This document shows positions 3 to 52,672 of a stretch of 64,000 nucleotides of DNA, piece by piece. The stretch is from assembly GCA_964603065.1 (NCBI GenBank), contig CAZRTL010000006.1:84-64083 (forward strand). Direction: 5' to 3'. This DNA is from Candidatus Woesearchaeota archaeon (lineage in GTDB: Archaea; Nanobdellota; Nanobdellia; SCGC-AAA011-G17; PNOQ01). Made by a program: the position numbers and the translations under genes. Under the pieces are notes generated by a model. It was not told the origin of the DNA. It ran no database searches and saw nothing but the letters and a program-made list of their open reading frames with translations. Each line of letters starts with the position of its first letter. Position 1 is the stretch's first letter.

Positions 3-1007
3 TATGACCAAAAGGGCCAGATTATTCAAATTGAAGAGATTATGGATTATGGAATTTTTGAAACTATTTATGATTATGATTTAACTGGAAATGTTATTTC
101 TATTATCAATAGCGTGACTGGGGACATTACATTATATGATTATAATATGGTTGGACAATTAGAGAATGTTTCTTTTAATGGAAATAAGGTTGAATATAGT
201 TATTATGATGATGGGTTAATAGACCAAATAAATTATCCAAACGGAGTATCAACTAATTATATTTATGATACTAGAAATTTTGTTGAAGAAATAAGAATTG
301 ACAATACAGTCGGTAATATATTTGATGAACAGTACTATTATGACAACGTTGGTAACTTGTTAAGAACAGAAGATTGGGAGCCAATAAATAATAATCCTGG
401 AACGGAGGGAAAATGTGCAGAATTTAATTATGATGATTTATACAGGTTAACTGATGTTACCGATAGAGGACAGGGCTGTGATGATAGTCAAGAATGGACT
501 GATTATTACAACCCAAATCCCGATCAAGGAATTGGAGTTAACTTAGATTATACTTATGATGCTGTAGGGAACAGGTTGACTAGGGCTGTTGGAGGATATA
601 TAACTGACCCTTGGGATGAAACTTATATTTATGGCTATGAAGGGGGACAGCCTAGTGGCGCTTCTCAGAACAATAAATTAGCTTTTACCGAATCTGATGT
701 TGTTGGGGATTGTAATTATCATTATGATGCTGCGGGAAATTTAAGAAGTAAAAGATGTAATGATGGTCAGACGAAAGTAGATTATATTGTTGATTATAAA
801 AACATGATAACGGATATAATTTATTATGAATGGATAGATAATGATTATTTATTGACTGGAGAGTCTCTGAGTTTTGAGTATGATGCGTTGGGTAGAAGAG
901 TTAAGAAATTAGTTATAACTTCTGATTCAGAGTTAGAGACAATTTATAGTTATGGTCTTGGAATGAATCCTTTATTTGAAGATACTAGAGAGTTATTGGA
1001 TTCTTAG
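3..1007 (+). CDS. YD/RHS-repeat protein, C-terminal part (the N-terminus lies upstream of the window)
   Basis: Repeated YD motifs (YDYDLTGN, YYDDGLID, YIYDTRN, YYYDNVGN, YTYDAVGN, FEYDALGRR). The reading frame is open to the window edge. The protein ends just before where an RHS core would normally begin. Confidence 0.8.
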   Translation, partial: YDQKGQIIQIEEIMDYGIFETIYDYDLTGNVISIINSVTGDITLYDYNMVGQLENVSFNGNKVEYSYYDDGLIDQINYPNGVSTNYIYDTRNFVEEIRIDNTVGNIFDEQYYYDNVGNLLRTEDWEPINNNPGTEGKCAEFNYDDLYRLTDVTDRGQGCDDSQEWTDYYNPNPDQGIGVNLDYTYDAVGNRLTRAVGGYITDPWDETYIYGYEGGQPSGASQNNKLAFTESDVVGDCNYHYDAAGNLRSKRCNDGQTKVDYIVDYKNMITDIIYYEWIDNDYLLTGESLSFEYDALGRRVKKLVITSDSELETIYSYGLGMNPLFEDTRELLDS

Positions 1008-1159: not shown

Positions 1160-2428
1160 ATGGGAAAGAGTGTGATATTTGTAGTTTTGCTAATAATTAG
1201 TATTAGTTTAGTTTCTGCTAAAGTTATTGATATCCCCAAAGTTAAACAGGGAAAATTTTTACCAGAAAATATTCAAGAGGATTCTCCAATTGGAATAAAA
1301 AGGTATGTTTATGGTGGTAACTCTTTAGTTGCTTCTCAAGATAGTGAAGGAGTTAAATATTATCATCAAGATAGACTTTGGAGTAATAGAGTAATTACTG
1401 ATTCTTCTGGAAATAAAGATAGTGAGTTTTTGTCTTTGCCTTTTGGACAAGTAGTGATTGAAGGCATAGATTATAGTTTTACTGGAAAAGAGTTAGATTC
1501 TTCTGGATTATATTACTTTGGAGCTAGATATTATGATTCTAATTTGGGAAGGTTTTCTTCTAGGGATCCTGTTCCGAATGAATTACCTTATGCTTATGTT
1601 GGAAATAATCCTATGAATTTTATTGATCCTGATGGAATGGATAGATATTCTATGTTGGCAGGAGATAAATCTATTGTTGGGCATTATCTTACTCCAGTTC
1701 TTCCTTTTAATTATATCAAAGATGTTACTGGATCGACAACTCTTGGTGCTTTAGGAGGGATTGCTTTTATGTTGGGTCATGAATGGGGGGAATATACCAA
1801 TCCTGCGATGTATAATTTTCCTGGCACTATTCAAGGGGCAGGCTATAGTTTTGGTGAATACCTGAATAGTCCTGATACGAGAGAGGATTTAAGATTGGGG
1901 ATAATTGGTTTAGCTGTAGAAAGTTTGAATCTTCCGGTTTCAATTGAAACAGAATCTTTATTTTTATCTGGGCAAGATAATCCTTTGGCTGCTGCCCCTT
2001 ATAATGAAAGAGTTTTTTTCGGTTTAGAATCTGGGAGTATTGAGAATGAGGGTATGTCCTTGAGATTTGGTTTGGTTGCTGGGCATAATGAGCCTGTCGC
2101 TGATGATGCTTTGCCCCTTTCTCATGTTTATACAAATAGGGGAGTAGGATTTGGATTTAGTAGCTTGGGAAGCCATGGCCAGATTGGAGATGCTGGAGAC
2201 TTTTTAGGGTTAGGGATAAGAATAAAGAAAACTCTTTTTTCGATTGATAGTATTGGAGTGAGCTTTCCTGCTTATGGCTTGTTTAGTATTAATCAACCAA
2301 GAGAAGGTAGTTCTTATGGCCAGCTATCTGGAGGGGCCGGCATAGAATTTAATGATTGGGGTAGATTCCCTATACGCATGGTTTCTAGTGGTGATTCGAT
2401 AGGATTGGGTATTGGCGGAAGTTTTTAG
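1160..2428 (+). CDS. Secreted RHS-repeat-associated core domain protein with a Gly-rich C-terminal domain of unknown function (toxin-like cassette)
   Basis: N-terminal signal peptide. RHS core signature YYHQDRLWSNRVITDSSGN...PFGQ...FGARYYDSNLGRFSSRDPV..PYAYVGNNPMNFIDPDG. The RHS core is shared with 5139..6236; the C-terminal domain is different. Confidence 0.75.
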   Translation: MGKSVIFVVLLIISISLVSAKVIDIPKVKQGKFLPENIQEDSPIGIKRYVYGGNSLVASQDSEGVKYYHQDRLWSNRVITDSSGNKDSEFLSLPFGQVVIEGIDYSFTGKELDSSGLYYFGARYYDSNLGRFSSRDPVPNELPYAYVGNNPMNFIDPDGMDRYSMLAGDKSIVGHYLTPVLPFNYIKDVTGSTTLGALGGIAFMLGHEWGEYTNPAMYNFPGTIQGAGYSFGEYLNSPDTREDLRLGIIGLAVESLNLPVSIETESLFLSGQDNPLAAAPYNERVFFGLESGSIENEGMSLRFGLVAGHNEPVADDALPLSHVYTNRGVGFGFSSLGSHGQIGDAGDFLGLGIRIKKTLFSIDSIGVSFPAYGLFSINQPREGSSYGQLSGGAGIEFNDWGRFPIRMVSSGDSIGLGIGGSF

Positions 2429-3266: not shown

Positions 3267-3303
3267 TTCGTTAGTAGGAGTTAGAATTTATTAAAAAGCC
3301 TTT

Positions 3304-5088
3304 CTATAATTTAGCTTCTATGTTTTCGTTTTTGTCCAAAGATTCAATTAATGTTCTTCCTAATTGGGATTTTTTGTGGATTTGTATTTTTGATTTGTTT
3401 GAAGCTATTGCTGAGAATAAAAACTGTCCATTTAGTGTAAATTCTATTGATTTCTTTACTATGTTTTTTGGAAATTTGAAAACTATATATTTAGCTGTGT
3501 CTGCAACCTCATAAGTTAGAGATTCTTGTCTTTTTAACTTTGGTTTAACTGTTAATTTAATTCCTACTTTGTTTTCAATGTTTTCTATTCTTTTTCCTTT
3601 TGTTCCGATTATTTGGGCAATATCTTTTTCTGGAATGAATATGTTTGCTCTATTTTGTGAGATAATTTCAACTTCTGCATCTTTCGAATATTGTCTTATT
3701 TCTTTTAGTAATTGTTTCTCTGCTAATTTTTGAGATGGAGATTTATCATTTTGAACAGGAATTATTACCGTTTCTTCCCCATAGGAATATATTTCATATG
3801 CTAATGTATTTTCGTTAAAATCAAAAACTTCAATTACTGGACGTGCTAAATCTGCTTCTGTCATTCCTGATGGAACTTTAACTGACATTTTTAGAGTTAG
3901 AACTTTCTCGACTTTTCCCGAGTCCATGAAAATTATTGTATCAACTACTGAAGGAATTAATCCGGTGTCTGTTCGGCCTATAAATCTTTGAACTGCATCT
4001 ATTGCAGAAGCCGAGTGTAAAACTCCAAGGCATTCAGAACCTGCTAACCTTAGATCCATGAATAGTTTGAAATCAGGAGTGTCTCTTATTTCGTCGAAAA
4101 TTAAGTTATCTGGTCTTGAAAGGAATAAAATGTCGTGTATCTCTTCGGATGTTGAAAAGTTTTTTGAGTATTGAGTAATTCTATCATCTAGTTGTAGATC
4201 TCTTGGAGATTCAACTGTTTTTGTTATTTTGTTATTTTGAGCATAATATTCGGCTATTGCCTGAGCTAGAGTTGATTTTCCCGACCCAGTTTCTCCTGCT
4301 ATTAATACTCCTCTAGCTTGAGCCTTTACTCTTTCTAATAAAGATTCATCTAATTTATAATCATCTAAGTTTAACTTTTTAATTGGTCTTATTGCAGTTA
4401 TTTCAAGACCATCAGAAATTGGTTTTCTTACTATAACTATTCTGTAGTTTTTATATTGTATTACTGTTGAACCCGAACGTGAAATTTCTACAAAGGATTT
4501 TGGATCCATTCTAGCTTTTTCAATTATTTCTTTGGCTAATTCATTTATTTTTTTGTATTTTAATTTTTTTCCTGTTTTGACAAGTTGCCAGTTTCCTGGA
4601 GCGCCTCTTTTTGCTAGGGGTATGGAATCTTCTTTTAGATGAACTGACATAGTTGTTTTGTCGAAATATTTTTCTATGCTTAATTTTTGTTTTGGTCTAA
4701 CTTGTTCTATGAAATTTACTTCTAGACCATAAACTCTTGCAGACTCTGCTTGAACTATGTCTGCAGTTATTAATGTAGAAGACTCTTCGTATGCAATTTG
4801 CCTTATCATTGCATCTATTTCACCAGATTTTGCAAATTTAATTTGATCGGGAGTTGGCCTAGATCCAACAAACCTTAATTCTACTTTCCCTTGTTTCTTT
4901 AGTTCTTGAAGTTTTTTTAGTTCATCAAGTCCAAGAAATCCAGTTTCTTTTCTTCTATTTGCTTGAGCTTCAAGTTCTGAAACTGCTGCATTTGCTATGA
5001 TTATTGTTCCCTGTATCTCTTTTTTTTCTATTGATTCAGAAATAACTCCTTCAATTATTGCAGAAGTATCTGGTACATATGTTTTCAT
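3304..5088 (-). CDS. PIN-domain / PilT-like ATPase / KH-domain protein
   Basis: N-terminal PIN-like region. Walker A GETGSGKST. C-terminal KH motif IIGTKGKRI. Confidence 0.6.
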   Translation of the reverse strand: MKTYVPDTSAIIEGVISESIEKKEIQGTIIIANAAVSELEAQANRRKETGFLGLDELKKLQELKKQGKVELRFVGSRPTPDQIKFAKSGEIDAMIRQIAYEESSTLITADIVQAESARVYGLEVNFIEQVRPKQKLSIEKYFDKTTMSVHLKEDSIPLAKRGAPGNWQLVKTGKKLKYKKINELAKEIIEKARMDPKSFVEISRSGSTVIQYKNYRIVIVRKPISDGLEITAIRPIKKLNLDDYKLDESLLERVKAQARGVLIAGETGSGKSTLAQAIAEYYAQNNKITKTVESPRDLQLDDRITQYSKNFSTSEEIHDILFLSRPDNLIFDEIRDTPDFKLFMDLRLAGSECLGVLHSASAIDAVQRFIGRTDTGLIPSVVDTIIFMDSGKVEKVLTLKMSVKVPSGMTEADLARPVIEVFDFNENTLAYEIYSYGEETVIIPVQNDKSPSQKLAEKQLLKEIRQYSKDAEVEIISQNRANIFIPEKDIAQIIGTKGKRIENIENKVGIKLTVKPKLKRQESLTYEVADTAKYIVFKFPKNIVKKSIEFTLNGQFLFSAIASNKSKIQIHKKSQLGRTLIESLDKNENIEAKL

Positions 5089-5138
5089 AATTTTGTTATT
5101 AGGAAAGGTTTTTATATACTTTTTCTTTTTAATATAGT

Positions 5139-6236
5139 ATGAAGAAGAGTGTGATTTTGGTAGTGTTACTGTTATTATTTATTCCTATATCTAGTTCTAA
5201 AACTGTTGATATACCCGGAGTTGAAAGAGGAAGTTTAATTGGCGAGGATGTTCCTTCAGAGCCCTTACAAGAAATAGGAGTAACTAGATACGTTTATGCA
5301 GGAAATAACTTAGTGGCTTCTCAAGTTGGAAATGATATTAAGTATTATCATCAAGATAGACTAGGAAGTAATAGATTAATTACAGATTCTTCCGGAAATG
5401 AAGATGGAGAGTTTTTATCTTTACCTTTTGGACAGCCTGTTGTTGATGAAGTTGAGTATGGTTTTACAGGAAAAGAGCAAGATTCTTCAGGTTTACATTA
5501 TTTTGGAGCGAGATATTATGATTCAAATTTAGGAAGATTTACTTCTAGAGATCCAGTTCTTAGTGAACTTCCTTACGCTTACGTTTCTAACAATCCTATG
5601 AATTTCATTGATCCTAGTGGAGCTATTCGAGAGTACGCTATTCAGAAGGGAGACGATTTGACTAAAATCAGTGAGCGTTTTGATACTAGTGTAGATGAGC
5701 TTGTTAAATTGAATAACCTACAAGATCCAAATTTAATTAAGGTGGGCCAAATGATTAGACTGCCGGATTTTTCTTTATCTAAATCTTCTGAATCTAGACT
5801 AAGCACTGTTGATTCCGACTTAGCGAAAGTTATTAGAGAGGCCCAAAAAGACTCCCCATTTGAGTTCCAAATAGTCGAAGGAAAAAGAACTAGGACCAGG
5901 CAATCTGACCTTTATAAAAAAGCAAGAAAATGGGTTGGAAAAGGCCAGACTCAAGATCCCACTGCCAATAATGTTCATCTTTGGGTTCCTATAAAAACTA
6001 ATTCTAAAGGGAGATGCGTCGGATGTGTTACTTGGACTTTGAGTTCTAAACATTTTTCTGGAAAAGCCGTGGATTTGGTGGAAGTTGACTCTAAAGGAAA
6101 TTTTGATTGGAACTATCCTCACTATAAAGAGATCTCGGCTCACATAAAAGCTACTGCTAAGAGAATGGGAATAACTATTGAATGGGGTGGAGATTGGAAG
6201 GATGATCGCGACATCCCACATTGGCAAGTTAAATAA
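5139..6236 (+). CDS. Secreted RHS-core domain protein with LysM and peptidase-M15 (LAS metallopeptidase) C-terminal domains
   Basis: Signal peptide. The RHS core (YYHQDRLGSNRLITDSSGN...FGARYYDSNLGRFTSRDPV) is paralogous to 1160..2428. LysM: YAIQKGDDLTKISERF...VGQMIRLP. M15 motifs SKHFSGKAVDL and WGGDW..DIPHWQ. Confidence 0.75.
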   Translation: MKKSVILVVLLLLFIPISSSKTVDIPGVERGSLIGEDVPSEPLQEIGVTRYVYAGNNLVASQVGNDIKYYHQDRLGSNRLITDSSGNEDGEFLSLPFGQPVVDEVEYGFTGKEQDSSGLHYFGARYYDSNLGRFTSRDPVLSELPYAYVSNNPMNFIDPSGAIREYAIQKGDDLTKISERFDTSVDELVKLNNLQDPNLIKVGQMIRLPDFSLSKSSESRLSTVDSDLAKVIREAQKDSPFEFQIVEGKRTRTRQSDLYKKARKWVGKGQTQDPTANNVHLWVPIKTNSKGRCVGCVTWTLSSKHFSGKAVDLVEVDSKGNFDWNYPHYKEISAHIKATAKRMGITIEWGGDWKDDRDIPHWQVK

Positions 6237-6253
6237 ATGGCCCCCTAGAATGT

Positions 6254-6967
6254 TTAAATCTTTCTTAGAAATAATAAAAATCCGGTGTGGCCGAGCATTT
6301 GATTTTCTGGCCTTATAATTCCTTTTTCATATTTCCAGTTTCTTTCTAAAATTTCAATGAAATCAGTTACTTGTAAGTTTTCAGTTAAATTATCTAAAAC
6401 ATTTTGAATTTGAGGTATTGTTGGTACATAAATTACTAAGAATCCTCCAGAAGTTAAAGCTGATTCTGCATGTTTTAAAACTAAATGAGGCTTTTCTAAA
6501 TCTAAATTAATTAAATCTAGATCTTTTTCGTCGATTCCTTCGTAAATATCTTTATTTTTTATAGTTATATTTTTTAATCCTAAATCTTCAAAATTCTTTT
6601 CTGCTATTTTTATAAAATCTTTTCTTTTTTCATATGCTATTACTTTTTTTGCTATGTTTGCTAAGGAAGAAGTTAACATTCCGGAGCCAATTCCACAATC
6701 TAGAACTTTTGAATCTTTGTTTACTCCGGTTTCTATTATAATTCTTCCAATATCTTTTGAAGTCATTATTTGAGGACCTCTTTTTATTTTTTTTAGATTA
6801 TCTGGGAATTTTGCATCGTAAACTGAGAATTCTTTTTTTGTGTTTGATAAGACTTTTGATTTAGTTTTTATGTCTTTTTCTTTAATAACTCCAAAATTAG
6901 TATGAAGATCTCCTTCGCTCCAGTAAAACTTTTTGTTTTCTCTTTGAAGTATTTTTTTGTATTTCAT
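6254..6967 (-). CDS. trmI: tRNA (adenine-N1)-methyltransferase TrmI/Gcd14 family
   Basis: SAM-binding motif VLDCGIGSGMLTSSLA plus TrmI-like flanking regions. The start is moved to MKYKK because the upstream ORF extension is translation of tRNA-Leu. Confidence 0.6.
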   Translation of the reverse strand: MKYKKILQRENKKFYWSEGDLHTNFGVIKEKDIKTKSKVLSNTKKEFSVYDAKFPDNLKKIKRGPQIMTSKDIGRIIIETGVNKDSKVLDCGIGSGMLTSSLANIAKKVIAYEKRKDFIKIAEKNFEDLGLKNITIKNKDIYEGIDEKDLDLINLDLEKPHLVLKHAESALTSGGFLVIYVPTIPQIQNVLDNLTENLQVTDFIEILERNWKYEKGIIRPENQMLGHTGFLLFLRKI

Positions 6968-6975
6968 TTTAGAAA

Positions 6976-7059
6976 TGCAGGAGACAGGGTTCGAACCTGC
7001 GTAGGCACTAAGCCGAAGGATTTTGAGTCCTCCCCGTTTGACCACTCCGGCACTCCTGC
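6976..7059 (-). tRNA. tRNA-Leu(CAA), long variable arm
   Basis: Reverse complement GCAGGAG..GAGGA-CTCAAAA-TCCTT, long variable arm, T arm CAGG-TTCGAAC-CCTG, acceptor closes. Confidence 0.8.
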
Positions 7060-7133
7060 ATGTTTTTTGTGTAATTATTTTGATTTAAAAGTCTTATGGA
7101 AAGCTTTTTAATTTTGTATTTTTTCTTTTAGTT

Positions 7134-7985
7134 ATGCCAACTAATGTAACTCCAGAATATCAGAGAGCTGAAAAGGAATATTTTCAAGCTGAAGGAATAA
7201 AAGAGAAAGTAAAGTGTTTGCAGAGAATGCTATCTGTTGCTCCCAGCCATAAGGGAGGAGAGAAACTAAGAAAAGATATTAAACAAAGAATAGCTAGATA
7301 TAAATCTCTATTGGAGAAAGAGAAACAGGCTGGCAAGGGCAAGGGGGGAGGTCTAACTATTAAAAAAGAAGGATCTGCCCAAGTTGTTTTGATAGGTAAA
7401 ACTAATTCTGGAAAATCTTTTTTGTTGGGTAAAATTACTAATGCTAATCCTGAAATAGCCGAGTATGAACATACTACAAAAATTCCTGAAATTGGAACTA
7501 TGGAATATAATGGAGTGCCTATACAAATTGTTGAAATGCCCGCCATAACTGAAAATTATTTAGAAAAAGAAAAAGGGCCTATGTTTTTGGGTATTATTCG
7601 TGGAGCAGACTTAATAGTTATTTTAGCTGAAGATAAAGCTGAAGAGAAGTTTATTATAAAAGAATTGGAATTGGTTGGAATAAAAGGAGATAGGATTGTT
7701 GTTAGGAAGAAAGAGGATCCGTATCATATTAAAAATAAAATTTGGAGTTTTTTAAATTTAATTTATGTTTTTACCAAAACCCCGGGAAAGGAAAAAGATT
7801 ACCCTCCCCTTGCTTTAAAGAAAAGATCTACAGTAAGAGATTTAGCTTTGAATGTACATAAGGATTTTGTCAAAAAGTTTAGTTTTGCTAAAGTGTGGGG
7901 AAGATCTGCCAAACACGAAGGTATGAAATGTGGATTGAAACATGTTTTACAAAGTGGAGATATTATTGAGTTACACACAAAATGA
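7134..7985 (+). CDS. DRG/Obg-like GTP-binding protein with C-terminal TGS domain (G3/G4 motifs degenerate)
   Basis: P-loop GKTNSGKS. DRG-like N-terminal helix. TGS-like C-terminus. The DxxG and NKxD motifs are not conserved. Confidence 0.5.
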   Translation: MPTNVTPEYQRAEKEYFQAEGIKEKVKCLQRMLSVAPSHKGGEKLRKDIKQRIARYKSLLEKEKQAGKGKGGGLTIKKEGSAQVVLIGKTNSGKSFLLGKITNANPEIAEYEHTTKIPEIGTMEYNGVPIQIVEMPAITENYLEKEKGPMFLGIIRGADLIVILAEDKAEEKFIIKELELVGIKGDRIVVRKKEDPYHIKNKIWSFLNLIYVFTKTPGKEKDYPPLALKKRSTVRDLALNVHKDFVKKFSFAKVWGRSAKHEGMKCGLKHVLQSGDIIELHTK

Positions 7986-8530: not shown

Positions 8531-8555
8531 ATAAATCTTTTTTCAATTTTATTTT

Positions 8556-43079: not shown

Positions 43080-43114
43080 ACCTGAGGTCGGGGGTTCGAC
43101 TCCCTCCTGAGGCT
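43041..43114 (+). tRNA. tRNA-Thr(TGT)
   Basis: Acceptor GCCTCAG/CTGAGGC, anticodon stem CGGGT/ACCTG with loop TTTGTAA, T arm GGGGG-TTCGACT-CCCTC. Confidence 0.85.
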
Positions 43115-43567: not shown

Positions 43568-43641
43568 GAGCCTGTGGCGTAGTCTGGTAGCGCATCACGT
43601 TGACTTCGTGAGGGTCGGGAGTTCGAATCTCCCCGGGCTCA
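43568..43641 (+). tRNA. tRNA-Val(GAC)
   Basis: Acceptor GAGCCTG/CGGGCTC, anticodon stem TCACG/CGTGA with loop TTGACTT, T arm GGGAG-TTCGAAT-CTCCC. T6 follows. Confidence 0.85.
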
Positions 43642-43685
43642 TTTTTTGCATAACATTTATAAAGATAAAAAGGGATTTTTTATAC

Positions 43686-45656
43686 ATGCAAAAAAGAGGT
43701 CAAGTAACGATTTTTATTATTCTGGGGATTGTCATTTTACTAGTATTTGGAATCTTGTTTTTTTTCAGAAGTGAGTTTGTAAAATCTGATTTTCAGAGCC
43801 AATTAGCTAAAGTGAAAGTTCCTGAACAAATTCAACCCGTGAAGAATTATATTGATGATTGTTTGGAGGAAACTGTTATGTCTGGAACTAGAATTATTGC
43901 TTCTAATGGGGGTTACTTGAGTGTCCCAAGTGAAGGAGTTCCTAGATCTCTCTTAAATCCATTTTCGAACTCTTTAGAAATTGGAAGTGGAGAGGTTGCT
44001 TATTGGTATTATAAATCGTCTAATAATTTAGATAATACTCAAGTTCCTACAATTGAGAGTATGGAAGAAGATTTGGAGAGGTATGTTGATGATAATTTTG
44101 ATTTTTGTTTGAAAGGATTAGATAATTTTTATGAAGAAGGATTTGAAATTCATTATGAAGGAAAAATTGAAACTGAAGTGAACGTTGAAGGTTCGCACAT
44201 TGAGGTTACTATGGATGCTCCTACTGATATTAGGAAAGATGATGTTGGTAAATATTTTAGCCAACACCTATTGGACGTAGATGTTAATTTAGGTAAATTG
44301 TATAATTTGGCTTTGGATGTTTTTGAAGAAGAAAATGAGAATAAATTTTTAGAACATAAAACGATTGATATGATGGTTGTTTATGATGAGATTCCTTATT
44401 CAAACACCGAATTTACTTGTAATAGATTAATTTGGCAAAAATCCGAGATTGTTGAAGATTTTAAGGATATTGCTCATGTGAATATGGGGGCTCTTAGGTT
44501 AAAAGGTTCGGATTATGAAAAAGTAAGAGAAGATAATGATTATTTTGAAATTGATGTGTATTCGGATAATACTGTATCAACTAATTTCCAATACTTAGAT
44601 AGTTGGCCTTTTGAAGTTGAGGTATTTCCGAGTAAAGGAGATTTGCTATCAGGAGATGCTGTTTCTCAAGCTAATTCGGATATTTACAAATATTTGAACC
44701 TATTTTTTTGTATGAATAATTATCATTTTATTTATGATGTTAAGTATCCAGTTTTAGTTAGCTTGGAGGATGATGAAGGTTTTTCATTCCAGTATGCAAC
44801 TATGGTCATTGTGGATAATAATAACCCTGGAACTTATCAAGGAGAAATTTTAAACTATGAAGACACCAGTGTTTTAGGAGAAGAGTTTTGTGACAATGGA
44901 TTTAATCAAGTAGATGTTGTTGTAATCGATTCTAGTAGCTTAATGTCTTTAGAGAATACTGATGTAAGTTATAATTGCTTTAGTTCAAGTTGTTATATTG
45001 GAAAAACAAATGCTAATGGTGAATTGTCTAGAAATTTCCCGGCTTGCATTAATGGAAGAGTTTATGCTGATAAAGAAGGATACTATTCAGATAGTCAGAT
45101 GTTAAGTACAAATGAGGATTCGAGGGTTTCATTATTACTGGAGCCATATTATGATTTAGATTTAGAAATTAAAGTTGTTGACTTAGATACGGGAAGTGTT
45201 AGAGAATTAAGAAGTGATGAGAATGCAATATTCCAGTTTGAGAATACAGATAATGATTACAAAACTATGGTTACTAATGGCTTAGAAGATATTACTTTAG
45301 TGGCTGGAGAGTATAAGGTTTTAACTTATTTGATGAGTGAGGGAGAGAGTGTTAAAATTGAGGCGGAGACACATGTTGAGTGTGTAGATGTTCCTAGATC
45401 AGGTTTATTCAGATTCTTGACAAAGGAAGAATGTTTTGAGGTTTCAAATGAAGCCAGTGAAATTGATCAGTTTGTTTCAGGAGGAGCAGCATTTGAATTC
45501 GTTTTGACACATTCTGAACTAGATAGTTCAATTAAAGTTACTTTGTATGCGGTCCAAGATTTCGTTCCTGACACGCATAATGAAATGTTACAAATTTTGA
45601 ATAATATCCCAACTAATGGTTTGAGAGATTACTTTACATATCCGGAGCTAGAATGA
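43686..45656 (+). CDS. 656-aa exported protein with a possible class III (type IV pilin-like) signal peptide
   Basis: MQKRG|QVTIFIILGIVILLVFGILFF resembles an archaeal prepilin signal. The start is moved downstream of tRNA-Val. The stop overlaps the giant gene in an ATGA junction. Confidence 0.5.
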   Translation: MQKRGQVTIFIILGIVILLVFGILFFFRSEFVKSDFQSQLAKVKVPEQIQPVKNYIDDCLEETVMSGTRIIASNGGYLSVPSEGVPRSLLNPFSNSLEIGSGEVAYWYYKSSNNLDNTQVPTIESMEEDLERYVDDNFDFCLKGLDNFYEEGFEIHYEGKIETEVNVEGSHIEVTMDAPTDIRKDDVGKYFSQHLLDVDVNLGKLYNLALDVFEEENENKFLEHKTIDMMVVYDEIPYSNTEFTCNRLIWQKSEIVEDFKDIAHVNMGALRLKGSDYEKVREDNDYFEIDVYSDNTVSTNFQYLDSWPFEVEVFPSKGDLLSGDAVSQANSDIYKYLNLFFCMNNYHFIYDVKYPVLVSLEDDEGFSFQYATMVIVDNNNPGTYQGEILNYEDTSVLGEEFCDNGFNQVDVVVIDSSSLMSLENTDVSYNCFSSSCYIGKTNANGELSRNFPACINGRVYADKEGYYSDSQMLSTNEDSRVSLLLEPYYDLDLEIKVVDLDTGSVRELRSDENAIFQFENTDNDYKTMVTNGLEDITLVAGEYKVLTYLMSEGESVKIEAETHVECVDVPRSGLFRFLTKEECFEVSNEASEIDQFVSGGAAFEFVLTHSELDSSIKVTLYAVQDFVPDTHNEMLQILNNIPTNGLRDYFTYPELE

Positions 45657-48600
45657 AAGAAAAAGTATTGATGGCAGTATTTTGTATCTTTTTGATAGTT
45701 TTTAGTAGTGTGCAGGTTAGTGCTTATAGTTTAAATGAGGAAGATGATAGAGATTTAGGAGAGGTTGTTTTAATTAATGTTGATAAATATGAACCTGCAA
45801 CAGTTAGTGCCGATTATTTGAGAAATAAAAAGTTCCCGGTGTATGTTCATTTGACTGGAACTACTTTAGAGAGTTTTTTGTGGGGTGGTAGTAATCCTGA
45901 AGAGCTAGATACTTTGTTCGGTGGTTTGAAAATAGATAGGATACATATTGTAAGGGATTCTATTTCTAGGTATGTTGCCGGAATAACTGAAAGGCCTCCA
46001 AAAGAAGATGGATATTTTGTTGATGCTAATGGAGAAGTTGATTTAGGTTACTTAAAGATTGACTTGAGGAGGATTCCTAAAGAGGAAGATTTACCGGATA
46101 GGATTGATTTGAATTTTACAGCTAGAGTTTATTTTGATACCGAATCTAGTTTTAGCGTTTTTGGAAAGCAAGATTTGTTTTTGGAGTTAGGTAGTGGAAT
46201 TAATAATTTGGAAATTGCTGGAGATGAGGATAGTAATAAAAAAAGTAGAGTTAAAGTTTGGGATGGAAGAGCAGAATTAGAATTTTTACAATTAAGGGGA
46301 GATAGGGCTACGTTTCAGTTGTATGATGGTAGTGGTCGTAAGTTAGGTGGACCATTTACTTTGAGAACTGGGCAGATTCAGACATTAAGATTAAATGATG
46401 GCCCGGCCTTTTTAGATAATCAAGTCAGATTTAAATTAAAAGGGATTTATGGTGCTGGAGAGAGAGCCGTGATTAATATGTATAGGCATGGTTCCTCTAA
46501 TGATGTTGAATTGGTTGAGGATATGAATCTTTACGCAGGTAGTGATTGGGTTTTGGAGGAAATTGGAAGGGATAAGGTCCAGTTAAGAAACTTAAAAACT
46601 AGACAAACTATGATTTTAAATGTGGGCCAAGGAGATTTTGATACAGATATTTGTGAGAGAATAGATCCTATTCAAATAGATAGTGATGAATTATTTTTGA
46701 GAGGAGTTGGTTTCCTTGAGGGAGATCATTTTGAAGATGATACTTTGTTGGGAAGATCAAGTAGTTTTTATTGTAGCGCTATTGACCAGTATGAAAGAGC
46801 TTTAACTTATGCCATTGGAGAAGAGGCAAGTGAAATAAAATATAGTATTGGTACTCTTTATGAAAAAGTTGGAGACATGTATAATGCTTTAGAAATGTAT
46901 GATACTATTTTACCAGAAACTGATTTTTATAGAACTAAAAATGTTCAAAAGAAAATAGATGATTTGAATTTTTTAATAGCAAATGAAATTACTAATTCTA
47001 AGATTTTGGAAGATGATGTAAGAGTCTATTTGAAAGAGGTAATTGATGTTGAAGAGGAAGAATCTTATTTTATGTTTAGAACAATAACTAATGGAATTAA
47101 GGGACAGGAGTTTACAAGAACTATTGGTATGGAAAGCCAGGATTTGATTGTTGAATCTGTTGATGGGGGAAAAACTTACGAATGGTATGCTAGAGATATA
47201 GATGCAGATGAAATTACTGTTATTAAAGTGGATGAAGACGGTAGAACTATCGGAAGTCCTAGGAAATTAGATATTGGTGAACACATTTTAGATAATACAG
47301 TTGTTGAAATTACAGATATTACTACTCCTTATAGTGTTATAATGACGGCTATTCCTGGAGATGGAAGAAGTTATGGAGTTAGTAATTTTCAAGTACATAT
47401 TCCAATTGAGAAGAGTATGATTCAGTGGACTCCTGAGCAAATTGATAATATGATTGATAAAAGCCATAAAGCTGTTGAAGATATTGAAAAGATTATGGAC
47501 AAGCTTGGTAATTTTATTAAGGGAATGAAGGTAGCTTGTTTTGGAATTTATGGAGTTTTAGCAATTAAGAATGCTTTCTTTAGGGATAATAATGTTAGAA
47601 AAGAAGTTGTTGATGAAAAAAGTAGATGGTGTAATGATGGAATTAGAACTGGCGAATTAGATTATAAAAAATTAGATGAGTGTTTGGAAGCTGAAAGTTC
47701 TAAAATAGAACAAGAAATTACTGAAAGAAAAGGATTGAAGAATACTAATGATAATTTCTTTAAGAATAATAAATTGATGAAACAAGATGCTAGTGGAATT
47801 AATGTTGCTGATCCTAGTTCTGCAAGCGCATTGGCCAATAAATTAAAAACTGATAGTGGAATAAATATTAAAGGGGAAGATATTGAAAATTTACTTAATT
47901 ATGATTCTTATACTGGTTTTACTACAGCAGAAGCTCAAAGATTATCTTATTTGGCTTCACATGATCCTGAAGCGTTTGAAGTTGAGTGGAGAGATTACCA
48001 AGAGAGTTCTTTGAAAGCTAAGACTCTTCATACTAGTTTGGGGGGAGTAACTGATCCTGTTCAAATTCAAACTTTAGCTACTCCTATTTTTACTCCTGGA
48101 AAAACTACAACTGATTTTAGTTCGGGTCCGAGTGGAATTGAAACTCAAGTTAAGGCAATAGATCCAAGTGCTCAAATATTTGAAGCTAGATCTATTCAGA
48201 GTGATGGAGGGGAATTTTATGTTTCTAGTAAAACTGGAACTGAAGCTGTTAAGGTAGAAATCCATAGAGATGCAAATTTGAATCCGGTTGAGTTTGGAGA
48301 TTATTATCTTTACAAAGGAAGTGGAAATAGGTATTTCTTACATAAAGGAGATGTTACTCAGTTATACAGACAGAATTATAATTCTAATTCTCATAAAGTT
48401 TTACAAATAAATGATGATGGAAAATTATGGATGTTCCCATTTAGTAGCTCTTTGGGAAAAAGAGATGATCCATTATATGATAAAGTTGATTATGCTAATT
48501 ATGTTGTTGTAGATTATGATGATTCGGGTAAGATAAAATCTTATAATCTTATGAATGTTGGTGCTGATGGCGAAATTAATTATCCAGGTACGGGAGATGA

Positions 48601-51600
48601 TGTCCCTGTTCCGAGAGCTCCTTACTTATTATGGCCTCCTGCTGAAAATAGAAATGCTCAATATGTTGCTTTAGCTAATCAAGTAGATTCTGAATATAAG
48701 AAATTCGCTACAAGAAGTTTGATTCCTGGAAAGACTGTTTCATTCGGAGGAGATTTAGTTTATAGTGTTAGTGAGTCTGCATCTAGATCATTACAACAGC
48801 CGACCACACAGTGCGAATATTATATGAGTGCAAGTGATTGTAAATTATTGTATAACTTTTGTGATCCTGTAATGTGCCCAGCTTCTAGATTTGATTTGGG
48901 TAACAGGTGGAATGTTGATAATGTTGTTCAGACTGGAATAATTGGAAGTTTAGTTTTGGGAATGCCAAATAGTATTGCTCTTGGTGGAAATAATATTGTA
49001 CCGCCAATTTGTTTGACAGGAGTTCATGCAGGTTTAGATAATTTAAGAAGTAAGTTCCAAGGTTTTGAAGATTGTTTACAAAAGGCTAAGGTTGAAGGAG
49101 AGGATGTTGGAATTTGTAATACTATTAGAAGTGTATATATGTGTGAGATTATGTGGAGAGAAGGATTGTCTATTTTTGGAAGTTTAGGCAAATTAGCTGA
49201 TGTTGTTTCTGAAAAAGTATTTGGAATATTTGGTGGAGATGGTTGGGAATATTCAAGATGGCAAGAGTCTTGGGGCGAATTAAGAGATAATGTTAATTTC
49301 TTTACTACAGAATATTCAAGAAGTGCGTTTGTCTCATATCAATCTAGAAGTTTAGGAGAGTTTGGAAGTGAGATTTGTAAAGCTGCTATTTATGGAAAGA
49401 CTCCAGGTGCAGGAGATTTCATTGGAGAATTGTTAGAGCCGGATAGTCCGTATCAATTTACTGGATGGTTCGATGAGTTAGAGTATTCTTCTGTTGAGGA
49501 AGGTAGATCTATCTATAGAGTTTATTATCATATTTATGCTGGAAGAGATGAAGATATTGAGTATGTTGCTTATTTGAAAGGTCCTGGTTTGAATAATTTA
49601 TATGTAACTAATCCTGAAAGGGGATTAAGAAGAGAGTATTTGAGAACTGGAGAGTATGCAGATAGAAGTTATACTATCACTGGAGATACTGGATATAATA
49701 CTATGTGTATTTTTATTAATGGAAACGAGCAGTGTGGATTTGGAAAGGTAAGTAGTTCTTATGCGTCCCAACAATTGCAAGATTGGATGCTAGAAGATGA
49801 ATTGTTAAGAAATGATATAGAAACTGCTGAAGAGTGTATGCCGGATACGCCTCATTTGAATCCTTATTTGCCAGGTGTTGTAACTCCTTCATTACCAGGG
49901 GCAGGAGCAATTAGTGAGCAAGGAGTTATTAGAATTTGTTCTGCGGATGATCCTGATGGGACTGGAACTAGATGGTTACAGGTTGGAACGTGTGGAGAGA
50001 ATGAGTTAGGAATTAGTTTAGGTAATTGTTATATTGATTATGAGAATAGTGCAAATTTCAATGACTTAAAGAAAAAGGATGAAGTTGCTGATGAGTATAT
50101 TAATGAAACAGTAAAGAAAGAAATTGATGAGCATATTGAAGAGTTTAATTTAGAATTAGATAAAGTGGATGTTAAAGTAAACAAAATAATAGAACAAGTG
50201 AAAGATAAAGGAGTTAAGGTAAAAGAAATTGATGAGTTGATGACTTATCCTGCTTTATATTTAGATGCTAAGGATCAGTTAGATGATTCTAGTGTTCATA
50301 TTAGAACTCATAAGAAAGTTGCTGAAATATTCAATGCTTTAGGAAATACTCAGCTAAAGATCGCTGGAGTTGGACCTCTTCCTATTACTGCAACACCTCT
50401 TATTAGAAGTCTGGCAGAGCTTAATCTCCAGTTTAATATTAAAGCGATTGGAATGTTTTCAACGCGTAACGATATAAATTTGAACTGGATGATGTCTACA
50501 TTACCAAGTGGAGTTACTCTTAGCCCAAGTAATAATGAAGAAGAAGGGTTTGTTGGAAGATGGAGTAATAATGTCGGAACTTATAATAATAGAATTGCTA
50601 CGGATGAAAATACGTTTAAAGATTTTGATAAAGGATTGGAAGATATCTATCATGATTTTTTGAACTCTTATGCTGTTGGTACCTCGGATGATGGAGGATA
50701 TTTACATGAGTTAAATGTAAGAAAGAGACATTTTGACAATACTATCGATAGGCATAGTTTGACTCCTATGCAATTGAGTCAAGTTAGGAACTATGAAGAA
50801 TTTAGAGATTTGATTTTGACTGGAGAATTTGAAGGAAGTTATGATTATGACTATACTGTAGGTTTATTAGATAAGGATAAAGAGATTGAAATTATTTTTG
50901 CAATTCCTACATTTGATTGGGACCAGAAGTATAAATGGGATGGCAGTGAGTGGGATGATATGAAAATTGGAGTTTTTGGAGATAGTAATGTCGGATTAGA
51001 TTTTCTTCCAGGATTGGTGGAAATAAAAGATCAATTGAATAAATATCATGGTAGAACTGAAAGAGTAGTTATTTCTGTTTCTGATGGAATCAGCATGATT
51101 GCTTTAACTAAAGAAGAATTCAATGCGTTGGTTTTTACAATTGAAGGTGATCCGGATGCTGTAGGAGATAGTGGGGTTGTTAATTCTGCTTTACAAGATC
51201 AAGTTAGTCCAATGGTTGTTAATCAGGTCGAGAATGCTGAAGTTATGATAGATCTTTTTTTAGAAAGGGCAGGGAATGATGCCGATAATTTGGAAGAATT
51301 GGAAAGGTTGACTGTTTTGGCCGAACAATCAGAATTTGTAGCTAGAGAAAATGCATATGCTGGTTTAATTAGTGATGATGATTCTGATGAGATAGTTGAT
51401 AGTTTAAGAGATATAAGTAATAAAATGGATGAAGCGATTTTAATCGTTGAAGATGTAGCTTTAAAAAATAGAATGGAACAAGTTCAAGAAAACATTATGA
51501 TTTTAGAAAACAATCCTGTTCTTTTTGTTCCTCAAGAAGGAGATTTGCCAGGTACGGAGAGTTGTCTTTTGCCTAGTACTCCTGAAAGAAATCCTTATAC

Positions 51601-52672
51601 AAATACGCAATCAAACATTAATTCATTTTTAGAAATTTATGGAAGTACTTTGGATAACATAGAAGAAGAAAGAAGTCAAGATATTCCCGGAGATGATTGT
51701 TTTGGTTATACTGAAGATGCTGCTGTTGATAGTTTAGTTTCTTCTGGTGTGGCCCAGTTAGATAATATAGTTGAATTAAGTGATTCCGAGGAAGATTCTC
51801 TTTTGTATACAGAAGTTGAGTTATTTCTTGGACAGAATGCTGCCATGTTGCGAATGTTGGGATGTGAAGAGGACGCTGGTTTAGTTGGGGCAGTGATAGA
51901 TTCTGCTGTGACCCGAACTGGAGTTGAGGTTGATTCTTGTAGTGTTTCTGAGGAAACGGTGGAGGAGGCAGATTGTTCTAGTTTTAATGATAATTTAGCA
52001 CAATGTGGAAATGAGAATTTTTGTTTTGTAAAAGAAAATGATAGAGATTGGTGGGATTTTTTTGGAGAAGATTATATTTGTGTTGATTGTTCTGAAATTG
52101 AGTCCTGTGAAGATATTCAAAATGAAGGTAAATGTGATGGAATGTGTGGAAATGTTAATGGTTGTAAGTGGGATTATGGTTTGTGTGTAGAACAAACTAT
52201 CGAAGAGGAAGAATGTTTGCTTACAAAAATTAATCCTTCAAATTTTGTTGGAGATGATCTCGTAGTGGATAAAGGTTTTGTTGAAAAAATTAATAGAATT
52301 AATGATTATGCTACTAACAATAATGTTAAGGTATTTATTACTGATTCATTTAGAGCTACAAACGATGTTAGTGGTGCAATCGTGACTCCTTCTGAAAGAT
52401 CCAATCATTTAGTGGGCCATGCAATAGATATGAATTTGATGTATGGGGCAAATTATGGAGATTATTGTAACTCTGGGTGTTTATCCCAAGATACACTTCC
52501 ACAAGATATTCAAGTGTTTATAGAAGATATTAGAAGTGATAGTGGTTTAAGATGGGGGGGAGACTTTAGTACCCCCGATGTTGTTCATATAGATGATGGT
52601 TTAAATTTAAGGAGCCCCGACCAATGGGAAGCACTGCTTAGAAAAATACAAGAGAATCCAGATTGTTATTAA
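45653..52672 (+). CDS. Giant (2339 aa) secreted protein with C-terminal peptidase M15 (LAS/D-Ala-D-Ala carboxypeptidase-like) domain
   Basis: Sec signal peptide. Uninterrupted 7-kb ORF. C-terminal motifs SNHLVGHAIDMN and GLRWGGDF...VVHIDDG. Cys-rich module just upstream of the peptidase. Confidence 0.7.
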   Translation: MKEKVLMAVFCIFLIVFSSVQVSAYSLNEEDDRDLGEVVLINVDKYEPATVSADYLRNKKFPVYVHLTGTTLESFLWGGSNPEELDTLFGGLKIDRIHIVRDSISRYVAGITERPPKEDGYFVDANGEVDLGYLKIDLRRIPKEEDLPDRIDLNFTARVYFDTESSFSVFGKQDLFLELGSGINNLEIAGDEDSNKKSRVKVWDGRAELEFLQLRGDRATFQLYDGSGRKLGGPFTLRTGQIQTLRLNDGPAFLDNQVRFKLKGIYGAGERAVINMYRHGSSNDVELVEDMNLYAGSDWVLEEIGRDKVQLRNLKTRQTMILNVGQGDFDTDICERIDPIQIDSDELFLRGVGFLEGDHFEDDTLLGRSSSFYCSAIDQYERALTYAIGEEASEIKYSIGTLYEKVGDMYNALEMYDTILPETDFYRTKNVQKKIDDLNFLIANEITNSKILEDDVRVYLKEVIDVEEEESYFMFRTITNGIKGQEFTRTIGMESQDLIVESVDGGKTYEWYARDIDADEITVIKVDEDGRTIGSPRKLDIGEHILDNTVVEITDITTPYSVIMTAIPGDGRSYGVSNFQVHIPIEKSMIQWTPEQIDNMIDKSHKAVEDIEKIMDKLGNFIKGMKVACFGIYGVLAIKNAFFRDNNVRKEVVDEKSRWCNDGIRTGELDYKKLDECLEAESSKIEQEITERKGLKNTNDNFFKNNKLMKQDASGINVADPSSASALANKLKTDSGINIKGEDIENLLNYDSYTGFTTAEAQRLSYLASHDPEAFEVEWRDYQESSLKAKTLHTSLGGVTDPVQIQTLATPIFTPGKTTTDFSSGPSGIETQVKAIDPSAQIFEARSIQSDGGEFYVSSKTGTEAVKVEIHRDANLNPVEFGDYYLYKGSGNRYFLHKGDVTQLYRQNYNSNSHKVLQINDDGKLWMFPFSSSLGKRDDPLYDKVDYANYVVVDYDDSGKIKSYNLMNVGADGEINYPGTGDDVPVPRAPYLLWPPAENRNAQYVALANQVDSEYKKFATRSLIPGKTVSFGGDLVYSVSESASRSLQQPTTQCEYYMSASDCKLLYNFCDPVMCPASRFDLGNRWNVDNVVQTGIIGSLVLGMPNSIALGGNNIVPPICLTGVHAGLDNLRSKFQGFEDCLQKAKVEGEDVGICNTIRSVYMCEIMWREGLSIFGSLGKLADVVSEKVFGIFGGDGWEYSRWQESWGELRDNVNFFTTEYSRSAFVSYQSRSLGEFGSEICKAAIYGKTPGAGDFIGELLEPDSPYQFTGWFDELEYSSVEEGRSIYRVYYHIYAGRDEDIEYVAYLKGPGLNNLYVTNPERGLRREYLRTGEYADRSYTITGDTGYNTMCIFINGNEQCGFGKVSSSYASQQLQDWMLEDELLRNDIETAEECMPDTPHLNPYLPGVVTPSLPGAGAISEQGVIRICSADDPDGTGTRWLQVGTCGENELGISLGNCYIDYENSANFNDLKKKDEVADEYINETVKKEIDEHIEEFNLELDKVDVKVNKIIEQVKDKGVKVKEIDELMTYPALYLDAKDQLDDSSVHIRTHKKVAEIFNALGNTQLKIAGVGPLPITATPLIRSLAELNLQFNIKAIGMFSTRNDINLNWMMSTLPSGVTLSPSNNEEEGFVGRWSNNVGTYNNRIATDENTFKDFDKGLEDIYHDFLNSYAVGTSDDGGYLHELNVRKRHFDNTIDRHSLTPMQLSQVRNYEEFRDLILTGEFEGSYDYDYTVGLLDKDKEIEIIFAIPTFDWDQKYKWDGSEWDDMKIGVFGDSNVGLDFLPGLVEIKDQLNKYHGRTERVVISVSDGISMIALTKEEFNALVFTIEGDPDAVGDSGVVNSALQDQVSPMVVNQVENAEVMIDLFLERAGNDADNLEELERLTVLAEQSEFVARENAYAGLISDDDSDEIVDSLRDISNKMDEAILIVEDVALKNRMEQVQENIMILENNPVLFVPQEGDLPGTESCLLPSTPERNPYTNTQSNINSFLEIYGSTLDNIEEERSQDIPGDDCFGYTEDAAVDSLVSSGVAQLDNIVELSDSEEDSLLYTEVELFLGQNAAMLRMLGCEEDAGLVGAVIDSAVTRTGVEVDSCSVSEETVEEADCSSFNDNLAQCGNENFCFVKENDRDWWDFFGEDYICVDCSEIESCEDIQNEGKCDGMCGNVNGCKWDYGLCVEQTIEEEECLLTKINPSNFVGDDLVVDKGFVEKINRINDYATNNNVKVFITDSFRATNDVSGAIVTPSERSNHLVGHAIDMNLMYGANYGDYCNSGCLSQDTLPQDIQVFIEDIRSDSGLRWGGDFSTPDVVHIDDGLNLRSPDQWEALLRKIQENPDCY

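Follow-up and report, generated by a model that had tools for sequence, protein, structure and literature searches.

The subject of this analysis is an open reading frame (ORF) located at nucleotides (nt) 5139 to 6236 of the window, that is, of the whole 64,000-nt stretch of DNA under study, drawn from contig CAZRTL010000006.1 of a Candidatus Woesearchaeota archaeon. From N- to C-terminus, the predicted product comprises a Sec-type signal peptide, a short acidic linker, approximately three YD-like hairpins, an RHS repeat-associated core, a LysM domain and an M15C/Peptidase_M15_4 zinc peptidase domain (Table 1). An initial annotation, prepared from the letters of the window, had described the C-terminus of 'the second RHS-core protein' of an archaeon as a LysM motif joined to an M15 peptidoglycan peptidase. 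The signature sequences on which that description was founded were all located, SKHFSGKAVDL at amino acids (aa) 303–313, WGGDW at aa 349–353 and DIPHW at aa 358–362, although the proposed start at 5620 had to be moved to the in-frame codon at 5619, and the last motif reads D.PHW rather than D..PHW. The ordinal was likewise correct, since the ORF at 1160..2428 is the sole other one in the window to match TIGR03696.

The LysM domain was identified through PF01476 (E 1.2e-13; 51.2 bits against a cut-off of 20.9), the corresponding sequence matches in the PDB being Ecp6 and LytE. The Pfam match to Peptidase_M15_4 (PF13539; E 4.5e-7; 30.8 bits against a cut-off of 25) covered aa 300–363 (nt 6036–6227), the whole M15 domain extending more widely over aa ~211–365, and a weak Pfam match to VanY (E 0.0056) was also recorded. 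Comparison with sequences in the PDB returned a group of M15C endopeptidases, namely ChiX of Serratia (5opz; E 4e-16), the RB49 enzyme (23ri; E 5e-15), LysECD7 (8q2g; E 2e-14), EndoT5 (2mxz; E 2e-9) and, weakly, Ply500 of a Listeria phage (2vo9). The values for the first three place the match far beyond chance, identity to the solved M15C endopeptidases being 24–30% over the domain, and the endolysin family PHROG 465 was matched at an E-value of 4.7e-38.

The predicted zinc ligands (H305, D312 and H361), the predicted catalytic residue (D358) and the EGxR motif (with R250) are all present, so that the H-x6-D...D-x-x-H zinc and catalytic set and the EGxR motif are common to the protein and the M15C endopeptidases. 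H305 and D312 align with H66 and D73 of EndoT5, the T5 enzyme, in which H66, D73 and H133 serve as zinc ligands and D130 as the catalytic residue; D358 and H361 align with the D-x-P-H of both ChiX and RB49. Throughout an alignment of 15 M15C sequences the residues S217, G248, R250, S303, H305, G308, A310, D312, G350, D358 and H361 were invariant.

The AlphaFold2 (AF2) model of the protein had a mean predicted local distance difference test score (pLDDT) of 73, with values of ~80–90 over the LysM domain and the N-terminal two-thirds of the M15 domain, and of 53–87 over aa 291–365, the segment that includes the zinc-ligand strand. The modelled LysM domain superposed on that of 4uz3 with a root mean square deviation of 0.6 Å over 46 columns and a target template modelling (TM) score of 0.92 in Foldseek. 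The same program, run against the PDB, gave as its top matches ChiX (E 8.6e-9; TM 0.73), LysECD7 (TM 0.75), Ply500 (TM 0.60), RB49, EndoT5 and LysB4, while the best matches in BFVD, a set of viral structures, were phage endolysins. The fold comparison called for in the initial annotation thus returned LAS peptidases, and the M15C endopeptidases named above resemble the present domain in predicted fold (TM 0.60–0.75) as well as in sequence. By both sequence and model, the C-terminal half of the product is a LysM domain plus an M15C-type peptidoglycan peptidase with an intact predicted active site, as the initial annotation had proposed, and the peptidase is predicted to cut the L-Ala-D-iGlu bond of murein.

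Those lysins are stand-alone proteins of ~130 aa, either cytoplasmic or holin-dependent (Ply500 having its own wall-binding domain), whereas here the peptidase forms the tip of a predicted Sec-exported archaeal protein, behind an RHS core and a LysM domain, and carries a 37-aa insertion that includes a CVGC motif. A loop of like length and other sequence occupies the same site in a subset of the stand-alone M15C proteins of the 15-sequence alignment, in which CVGC itself was found only in the protein under study and its ortholog P0002. The latter, with an identity of 59% over the whole protein and 68% over the M15 part, retains every catalytic residue. An exhaustive search with the M15 domain among 1.84 billion cluster representatives recovered 1712 proteins at E ≤ 1e-3; below 1e-30 the protein's own cluster was the only one matched, the next best being stand-alone proteins of 120–250 aa with ~44% identity.

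Table 1. Positions of the LysM–M15 ORF, of its component features and of other features of the window.
Feature	Position (nt)	Strand	Basis or remark
LysM–M15 mini-RHS ORF	5139..6236	+	365 aa (translation)
Putative TATA-like A/T-rich element, TTTTATATA	5110..5118	+	~25 nt before ATG; read by eye
Sec-type signal peptide, aa 1–20, MKKSVILVVLLLLFIPISSS then KTVD	5139..5198	+	Translation; conserved N-terminus in family alignments
YD-like beta-hairpins, aa 49–103, plus RHS-associated core, aa 96–161	5283..5624	+	TIGR03696; PDB matches; AF2 strands
LysM domain, aa 166–209	5634..5765	+	PF01476
M15C-type zinc peptidase domain, aa 211–365, L-Ala-D-Glu endopeptidase-like	5769..6233	+	PF13539; sequence and fold matches
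Insertion of ~37 aa with CVGC, aa 262–298, between LYxxGR helix and VTWTLSSKH zinc-ligand strand	5922..6032	+	Two-stretch ChiX/RB49 matches
Stop codon plus 17-nt spacer before convergent tRNA methyltransferase gene	6234..6253	.	ORF list; Pfam GCD14/TrmI
Paralogous mini-RHS, 422 aa (P0008), with Gly-rich tip unlike that of the LysM–M15 ORF	1160..2428	+	TIGR03696 E 2.2e-20
3' end of 2061-aa secreted YD-repeat (RHS shell) protein	3..1007	+	Frame open from nt 3; full gene at 3663–9848 of locus L086
Second Peptidase_M15_4 domain, at C-terminus of 2339-aa secreted giant protein (45653..52672)	52391..52594	+	PF13539 E 3.4e-7/3.4e-8, aa 2247–2314

The signal peptide was called by inspection using the -3/-1 small-residue rule, and in the alignments of related proteins described below its end conforms to the consensus ...xSxA followed by K. 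A class III (pilin-type) signal peptide was judged not to apply, since the position preceding the hydrophobic stretch varies within the family while the xSxA|K site after it is conserved. The element TTTTATATA would be consistent with a leaderless or short-leader archaeal transcript of the ORF; a scan for sigma-70 promoters and terminators was discarded as not meaningful in an archaeon.

The RHS portion was recognised through the NCBIfam model TIGR03696 (aa 96–161; E 1.3e-21; 76.9 bits against a cut-off of 32.5) and through PDB matches to the cores of TccC3, YenC2 and RhsA, and six beta-strands of the YD-repeat type were apparent at aa 49–103 of the AF2 model. No Pfam match to RHS_repeat was obtained in the ORF, and only ~110 aa precede the cleavage motif. 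The term 'RHS-core protein' used in the initial annotation was therefore apt with respect to the core (~66 aa plus a few YD-like hairpins) and inapt with respect to the RHS shell, and its companion statement that the peptidase is delivered on an RHS scaffold finds no support in the form given, because only the core, with its plug and predicted self-cleavage motif, stands behind the Sec signal, with no YD-repeat shell.

Residues 1–161 define a family of 205 detected relatives which diverge thereafter, and the lengths, invariance and tips reported here are those of the best 120 of the 205. The self-cleavage motif at the end of the core, P153-xxxx-D158-P-S-G161-A162, is associated with the predicted catalytic residues R125, D138 and D158, and these three residues, together with G161, are invariant in all 120 members. 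The core residues align with '...GRWLSSDP...NNPVTLLDPDGL|M' of TccC3, D138 and D158 falling at the positions of the TccC3 dyad; in RhsA the equivalent motif is PxxxxDPxG[W/L/F], with a catalytic dyad of D1324 and D1346 and cleavage after W1350 (PMC8765631).

Family members have a median length of 396 aa, with DPxG around aa 158 and tips of 241 aa (median). The family alignments are good up to DPxG and fail completely beyond it, a hypervariable tip thus starting directly after the core. The short form, in which the core lies at aa ~1–163 of a product of ~350–450 aa, was found, within the genome collection searched, almost only in Woesearchaeota metagenome-assembled genomes (MAGs), whereas the bacterial, Bathyarchaeota and Theionarchaea relatives that were fetched mostly carry the core at the end of proteins of >1300 aa. 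Given this near-confinement to Woesearchaeota, the short form can be designated a lineage-typical 'mini-RHS', whose membership of the RHS family holds for core and polymorphism and fails for shell and immunity gene.

A LysM domain directly follows the core in six of the 120 members. Behind it lie M15_4 in the present protein and P0002, a Pesticin/phage-lysozyme domain in P0005, Peptidase_C39_2 in P0004, and, in P0003, a domain with sub-threshold resemblance to both NlpC/P60 (18.6 bits against a cut-off of 23) and CHAP (17.1 bits against 26), while the domain in the sixth, P0031, could not be assigned. Other tips of the family matched Ntox47 or PT-TG, and the majority had no Pfam match of any kind. 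The use of LysM as an adhesion module by polymorphic toxins was noted in 2012 (PMC3482391), and the existence of two bacterial RHS proteins with a core, a LysM domain and an NlpC/P60-like tip (L044 and L057) demonstrates that this type of tip on an RHS protein is not unique to archaea. The G+C content at third codon positions (GC3) of the LysM–M15 tip (nt 5625–6233) is 0.30–0.35 compared to 0.17 in the RHS part and 0.17–0.23 in neighbouring genes, a difference which suggests that the tip may be foreign, taken over from a lysin of bacteria or phages and by now largely adapted.

The nature of the relationship between core and tip was well illustrated by the paralogue at 1160..2428. Over nt 129–477 the two genes can be aligned without gaps at 78.5% nucleotide identity, the similarity ending at the DPxG codons and the sequences being unrelated beyond, a pattern typical of C-terminal tip displacement; their longest stretch of exact identity is 20 nt. 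The paralogue's tip, which is common to P0006 and P0014, had no Pfam or PDB match, and the AF2 model of its product (pLDDT 39.8) was too low in confidence for a fold search, long beta-hairpins being hinted at. No immunity gene follows this ORF either, the next gene being the convergent one for DacZ.

At the left-hand edge of the window, ~4 kb upstream of the LysM–M15 gene and not its immediate neighbour, lies the 3' end of a gene for a secreted protein which has a signal peptide and RHS_repeat matches, and from which the TIGR03696 core is absent. Seven such shell ends, from about six genomes, either stop 10–25 aa past the sequence YSYGLGxSPL or run into a Cys-rich tail, and the 'YYHxDRLGS...' continuation into a core was present in none of them; the bacterial shell relatives found in a metagenome scan, by way of contrast, nearly always have the core in the same ORF. 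In five of five genomes a close relative of the shell gene is followed downstream by a mini-RHS gene with its own signal peptide, the gap being 152 nt with a tRNA-Arg gene between the two in the window, 6 nt in L008, 11 nt in L089, ~1 kb in L088 and ~1.5 kb in L022. The converse proposition, that every mini-RHS gene has a shell gene beside it, was rejected, since the upstream neighbours of the latter are mostly housekeeping genes (PheT, DRG, ParA, Dna2-like). Residues 1571–1677 of the shell correspond to 600–705 of RhsA, and residues 66–169 of the mini-RHS protein to 1183–1297, so that the pair is roughly colinear with one RhsA, and this colinearity, taken with the repeated adjacency, supports an evolutionary fission and allows a functionally split RHS protein. 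A blastn comparison of shell and mini-RHS DNA detected no similarity, and the C-terminus of the shell, used as a query for homologues, returned few close ones, the metagenome scan yielding mostly generic bacterial RHS proteins plus the informative locus L089.

With respect to the organism, the initial annotation was borne out in its assignment to an archaeon by the presence in the window of an archaeal signal recognition particle (SRP) RNA (112 bits) and of genes for TFB, Rpb3, SRP54/FtsY, the thermosome, Kae1, ELP3, DacZ, a PIN-KH ATPase and TrmI, alongside a 5S rRNA gene and at an overall GC content of 32%. Two long tRNA genes found by Rfam and missed by ARAGORN, at 52690–52790 (- strand; 101 nt) and 62347–62459 (+ strand; 113 nt), are both likely to bear introns in the archaeal style. 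Among GTDB species representatives, the nearest is a 'Candidatus Woesearchaeota archaeon' MAG (87% aa identity for PIN-KH, 78% for TrmI and 76% for DacZ). An identical LysM–M15 protein in the same gene order occurs on JGI and ENA metagenome contigs, the protein is also present in an NCBI record, and a short Logan contig carries the gene with its downstream neighbour; the recurrence of the same protein and order in independent assemblies indicates that the arrangement is not an assembly chimera, and the gene is native to an archaeal chromosome.

The gene stands singly between a divergent PIN-KH ATPase gene and the convergent TrmI gene (6254..7045, - strand), a layout repeated on the JGI and ENA contigs. 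As the latter begins 18 nt past the stop codon, there is no room downstream for an immunity gene, and a mechanical ORF count found a small same-strand ORF within 100 nt downstream of only ~7 of 44 related mini-RHS genes. The lack of an immunity gene fits a target polymer that the producer does not possess. The region of the window at 2433–8530, which includes the genes for DacZ, PIN-KH ATPase, TrmI and a DRG GTPase, corresponds to a neighbourhood in which mini-RHS genes have repeatedly landed across Woesearchaeota, such genes occupying varying intergenic slots, with varying tips, at nine loci (L003, L008, L011, L018, L025, L045, L058, L084 and L089).

Elsewhere in the window a second Peptidase_M15_4 domain, with the motifs SNHLVGHAID, WGGDF and DVVHID, was detected in a giant protein coded for on the + strand, which has a signal-like N-terminus and a Cys-rich C-terminal region, and the remainder of which matched nothing in Pfam, the PDB or PHROG. 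Two predicted exported M15 peptidases, on quite different carriers, are therefore encoded by this one archaeon. Three ORFs resemble LAGLIDADG_3 homing endonucleases: one at 42099–43079 (+ strand) overlaps a tRNA-Thr gene (43041–43114), another at 52669–53379 (- strand) overlaps the 101-nt tRNA gene and abuts the end of the giant gene, and the third lies at 57769–59007 (- strand). A PAS-PAS-HisKA-HATPase sensor kinase with an adjacent Cache/HAMP protein (12837–16225, - strand) is unexpected for so reduced a genome. Two further large ORFs on the + strand, at 8556–10874 (772 aa) and 43608–45656 (682 aa), had no Pfam or NCBIfam match, the former being split in the gene calls of the strain variant L085 into one gene of 123 aa and another of 592 aa.

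Considered together, the domain content, the model and the context of the ORF at 5139..6236 suggest that its product is probably, although by no means certainly, a pre-toxin that is secreted by its archaeal producer, a member of the Woesearchaeota (DPANN), and frees a peptidase able to bind murein for use against bacteria. The Sec-type signal peptide would direct export across the archaeal membrane, whereupon the ~140-aa hairpin and core module, having the residues of an autoprotease, could cleave itself after A162 and free a C-terminal fragment of ~23 kDa. The LysM domain of this fragment would dock on the N-acetylglucosamine-containing glycan of bacterial murein, and the M15C peptidase would cut the L-Ala-D-iGlu bond of the stem peptide. 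Bacteria with murein so cut might be weakened or lysed, or their walls opened for contact, and the sequence fits killing, predation and the breaching of a host wall alike. A producer with no murein of its own would need no immunity gene, and the tip, one of many exchangeable ones on the scaffold, was perhaps taken from a bacterial or phage lysin.

A number of observations weigh against this interpretation. The residue following DPxG is Ala in the present protein and varies within the family (M 60, R 20, T 12, E 8, K 6...), whereas it is canonically W, L or F, and self-cleavage at this site is uncertain in consequence. The core segment at aa 107–162 was modelled with a pLDDT below 60, and, as the interior of the shell is where the autoprotease of solved RHS proteins folds, the core may neither fold nor cut when alone. 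Lysins of the ChiX/T5 type work from inside the cell or on walls that have no outer membrane; as this membrane shields Gram-negative murein, an enzyme applied externally would not reach it unaided. Finally, LysM domains can also bind chitin (PMC12352652), and the M15 domain is interrupted by the 37-aa insertion.

The pre-toxin interpretation nevertheless finds a ready setting in published work on archaeal wall-degrading enzymes, a corpus which also indicates that the novelty implied by the initial annotation was overstated. Of the 3,706 archaeal genomes surveyed by Strock et al. (2025; PLoS Biol, PMC12352652), 175 encode modular peptidoglycan hydrolases, foremost among Nanoarchaeota, and the authors' table includes proteins with a Sec signal designated 'LysM+Peptidase_M15' in at least six genomes of Woesearchaeales, the order to which the present archaeon belongs, as well as 'LysM+NLPC_P60'. 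Three archaeal peptidoglycan hydrolases are on record as killing bacteria, two haloarchaeal enzymes tested in that study and one cited there from earlier work, and its authors raise killing, predation, the opening of a host's wall and scavenging as alternative purposes. Both Peptidase_M15_4 and LysM are on their Pfam list, and the present protein is coded for on an archaeal contig; like their hydrolases (e.g., Woldo and Danwoldo of Halogranum), it combines a wall-binding and a murein-cleaving domain with a signal peptide and a proposed anti-bacterial role. The enzymes that they tested, however, pair M23 or glucosaminidase with PG_binding_1, and their catalogue label is Peptidase_M15 as distinct from Peptidase_M15_4. 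Since archaeal LysM plus M15 proteins were already catalogued, the present protein is not the first of its kind, and only its carrier is new.

In that carrier the protein resembles the bacterial RHS toxins (RhsA of P. protegens, TccC3, YenC2 and WapA) with regard to the predicted autoprotease residues of the core, the PxxxxDPxG motif, the hypervariable tips and the presence of several paralogues per genome. It differs from them in that the polypeptide has no YD shell of ~700–1300 aa, is accompanied by no PAAR/VgrG, TcB, type VI secretion system (T6SS) context or adjacent immunity gene, and possesses instead a plain Sec signal and an Ala after DPxG. Murein hydrolases also act as inter-microbial toxins in the form of T6SS effectors, the Tae amidases and Tge muramidases, which are matched by periplasmic immunity proteins. 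The latter are injected and require cognate immunity, whereas the present enzyme would be exported by Sec from a producer that has no target polymer and no immunity gene for it. An attack on bacterial walls by members of the same archaeal lineage was also envisaged by Vigneron et al. (2022; PMC9723730), who discussed predicted murein transglycosylases and pore-forming toxins in 'vampiristic' Woesearchaeota, the AR20 genome of Castelle et al. (2015) being cited in that paper. Their enzymes are GH23 glycosidases, commonly of the LysM+SLT type, as opposed to a stem-peptide endopeptidase on a polymorphic-toxin scaffold. The term 'RHS' does not occur in either PMC12352652 or PMC9723730, although Makarova et al. 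(2019) may cover short archaeal RHS toxins. Relative to those two papers, the polymorphic mini-RHS carrier, the alternative murein-hydrolase tips and the coreless shell gene are new.

The foremost alternative to a pre-toxin is an enzyme that mainly digests the peptidoglycan of dead cells, or free peptidoglycan, and thereby feeds an auxotrophic archaeon with amino acids and amino sugars, in place of any use as a weapon or for entry into a host. Such a role would call for the same domains and secretion signal, and was left open by Strock et al., in whose data an Opp/MppA-type uptake set is more frequent in archaeal genomes with such hydrolases, at 23% as against 8% (PMC12352652); it also accords with the reliance of DPANN archaea on external building blocks (PMC9723730). 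It is difficult to reconcile, however, with a polymorphic-toxin scaffold that elsewhere bears Ntox47, PT-TG and pesticin-type tips, an endopeptidase acting alone would free little that can be imported, and no uptake genes were seen within the window. Scavenging as the principal function is considered unlikely.

A second alternative concerns the route of delivery, and proposes that the LysM–M15 protein functions as a cartridge, active solely in partnership with the 2061-aa shell that is secreted apart from it; its hairpins and core would complete and plug the latter, and the tip would be held in or on this cocoon until delivery. Several of the findings outlined above are those expected of such an arrangement: the shell has YD repeats and a signal peptide and no core; its relatives end where a canonical RHS protein would continue into the region with which a mini-RHS begins; the pair lines up, approximately, along a single full RhsA; close relatives of the shell gene, wherever located (five of five genomes), are followed at 6 nt to 1.5 kb by a mini-RHS gene; and the core segment is poorly modelled alone. 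Most mini-RHS genes nevertheless stand alone, in housekeeping surroundings that lack a shell gene, mini-RHS proteins are numerous and close homologues of the shell few, the gene next to the shell in the window is not that of the LysM–M15 protein, and there is no precedent for two exported polypeptides closing a cocoon around a folded 23-kDa LysM–M15 fragment. An obligate partnership is thus decidedly unlikely, and equal reserve attaches to the broader proposition that a Woesearchaeota shell might be completed outside the cell by any of several secreted hairpin-core-tip cartridges, some of them directed at murein with no need of immunity. Any involvement of the shell with the LysM–M15 protein would be of this conjectural kind.

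That the M15 domain acts on some other substrate, be it a peptide of the archaeon's own envelope, the pseudomurein of an archaeal host or a soluble peptide containing D-amino acids, is very unlikely. M15 enzymes do include dipeptidases and carboxypeptidases such as VanX and VanY, the latter being the weak Pfam match referred to above, and the 37-aa insertion is unusual. However, every close relative in sequence and fold is either a phage lysin or an endopeptidase that cuts murein at L-Ala-D-Glu, a LysM domain accompanies the peptidase, and the sister tips on the scaffold include a lysozyme and cysteine-peptidase murein hydrolases. Pseudomurein contains L-amino acids only and is not known to contain D-Glu. 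It is described as confined to Methanobacteriales and Methanopyrales (PMC10117817).

Very unlikely too is a silent or decaying cassette, that is, a leftover C-terminal RHS module that serves as material for recombination and is not made as protein. Its appeal lies in the shell gene upstream and in a resemblance to the bacterial rhs 'orphan' fragments of core plus tip downstream of a main rhs gene (PMC2935791). Yet the gene has its own ATG, signal peptide and TATA-like element, over 100 proteins of ~350–450 aa show the same architecture in full, and the frame and every catalytic residue are kept in P0002; furthermore, the shell gene contains no core-coding DNA with which to recombine, and the longest exact match to the paralogue is that of only 20 nt. 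Bacterial or phage contamination, or a chimeric assembly, which might be suggested by the likeness of the M15 domain to phage and bacterial lysins and by the raised GC3 of the tip, was refuted, as far as sequence can show, by the archaeal housekeeping genes on either side, the SRP RNA, TFB and thermosome on the same contig, the repeated arrangement in the independent JGI and ENA assemblies, the presence of the gene with its downstream neighbour on the Logan contig, an N-terminal half typical of Woesearchaeota paralogues and the absence of phage genes nearby, and is of negligible probability.

If the tip of the LysM–M15 protein is active, a stem-peptide endopeptidase would join the short list of archaeal anti-bacterial enzymes, and would link that list to the polymorphic toxins. 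It would also constitute a genomic sign that these small archaea habitually meet bacteria as prey, host or competitor. One archaeal lineage places several unrelated murein-hydrolase tips, M15C, lysozyme/pesticin, C39-like and possibly NlpC/P60, on a single exchangeable scaffold, apparently with no immunity genes, and, as a small secreted predicted lysin targeted by LysM, the protein could be tried as an antibacterial. The stripped RHS core and the adjoining coreless shell gene amount to a natural test of the function of an RHS core deprived of its cocoon; should the two prove to work together, Woesearchaeota would possess a toxin assembled in trans, with exchangeable warheads, for use by archaea against bacteria.

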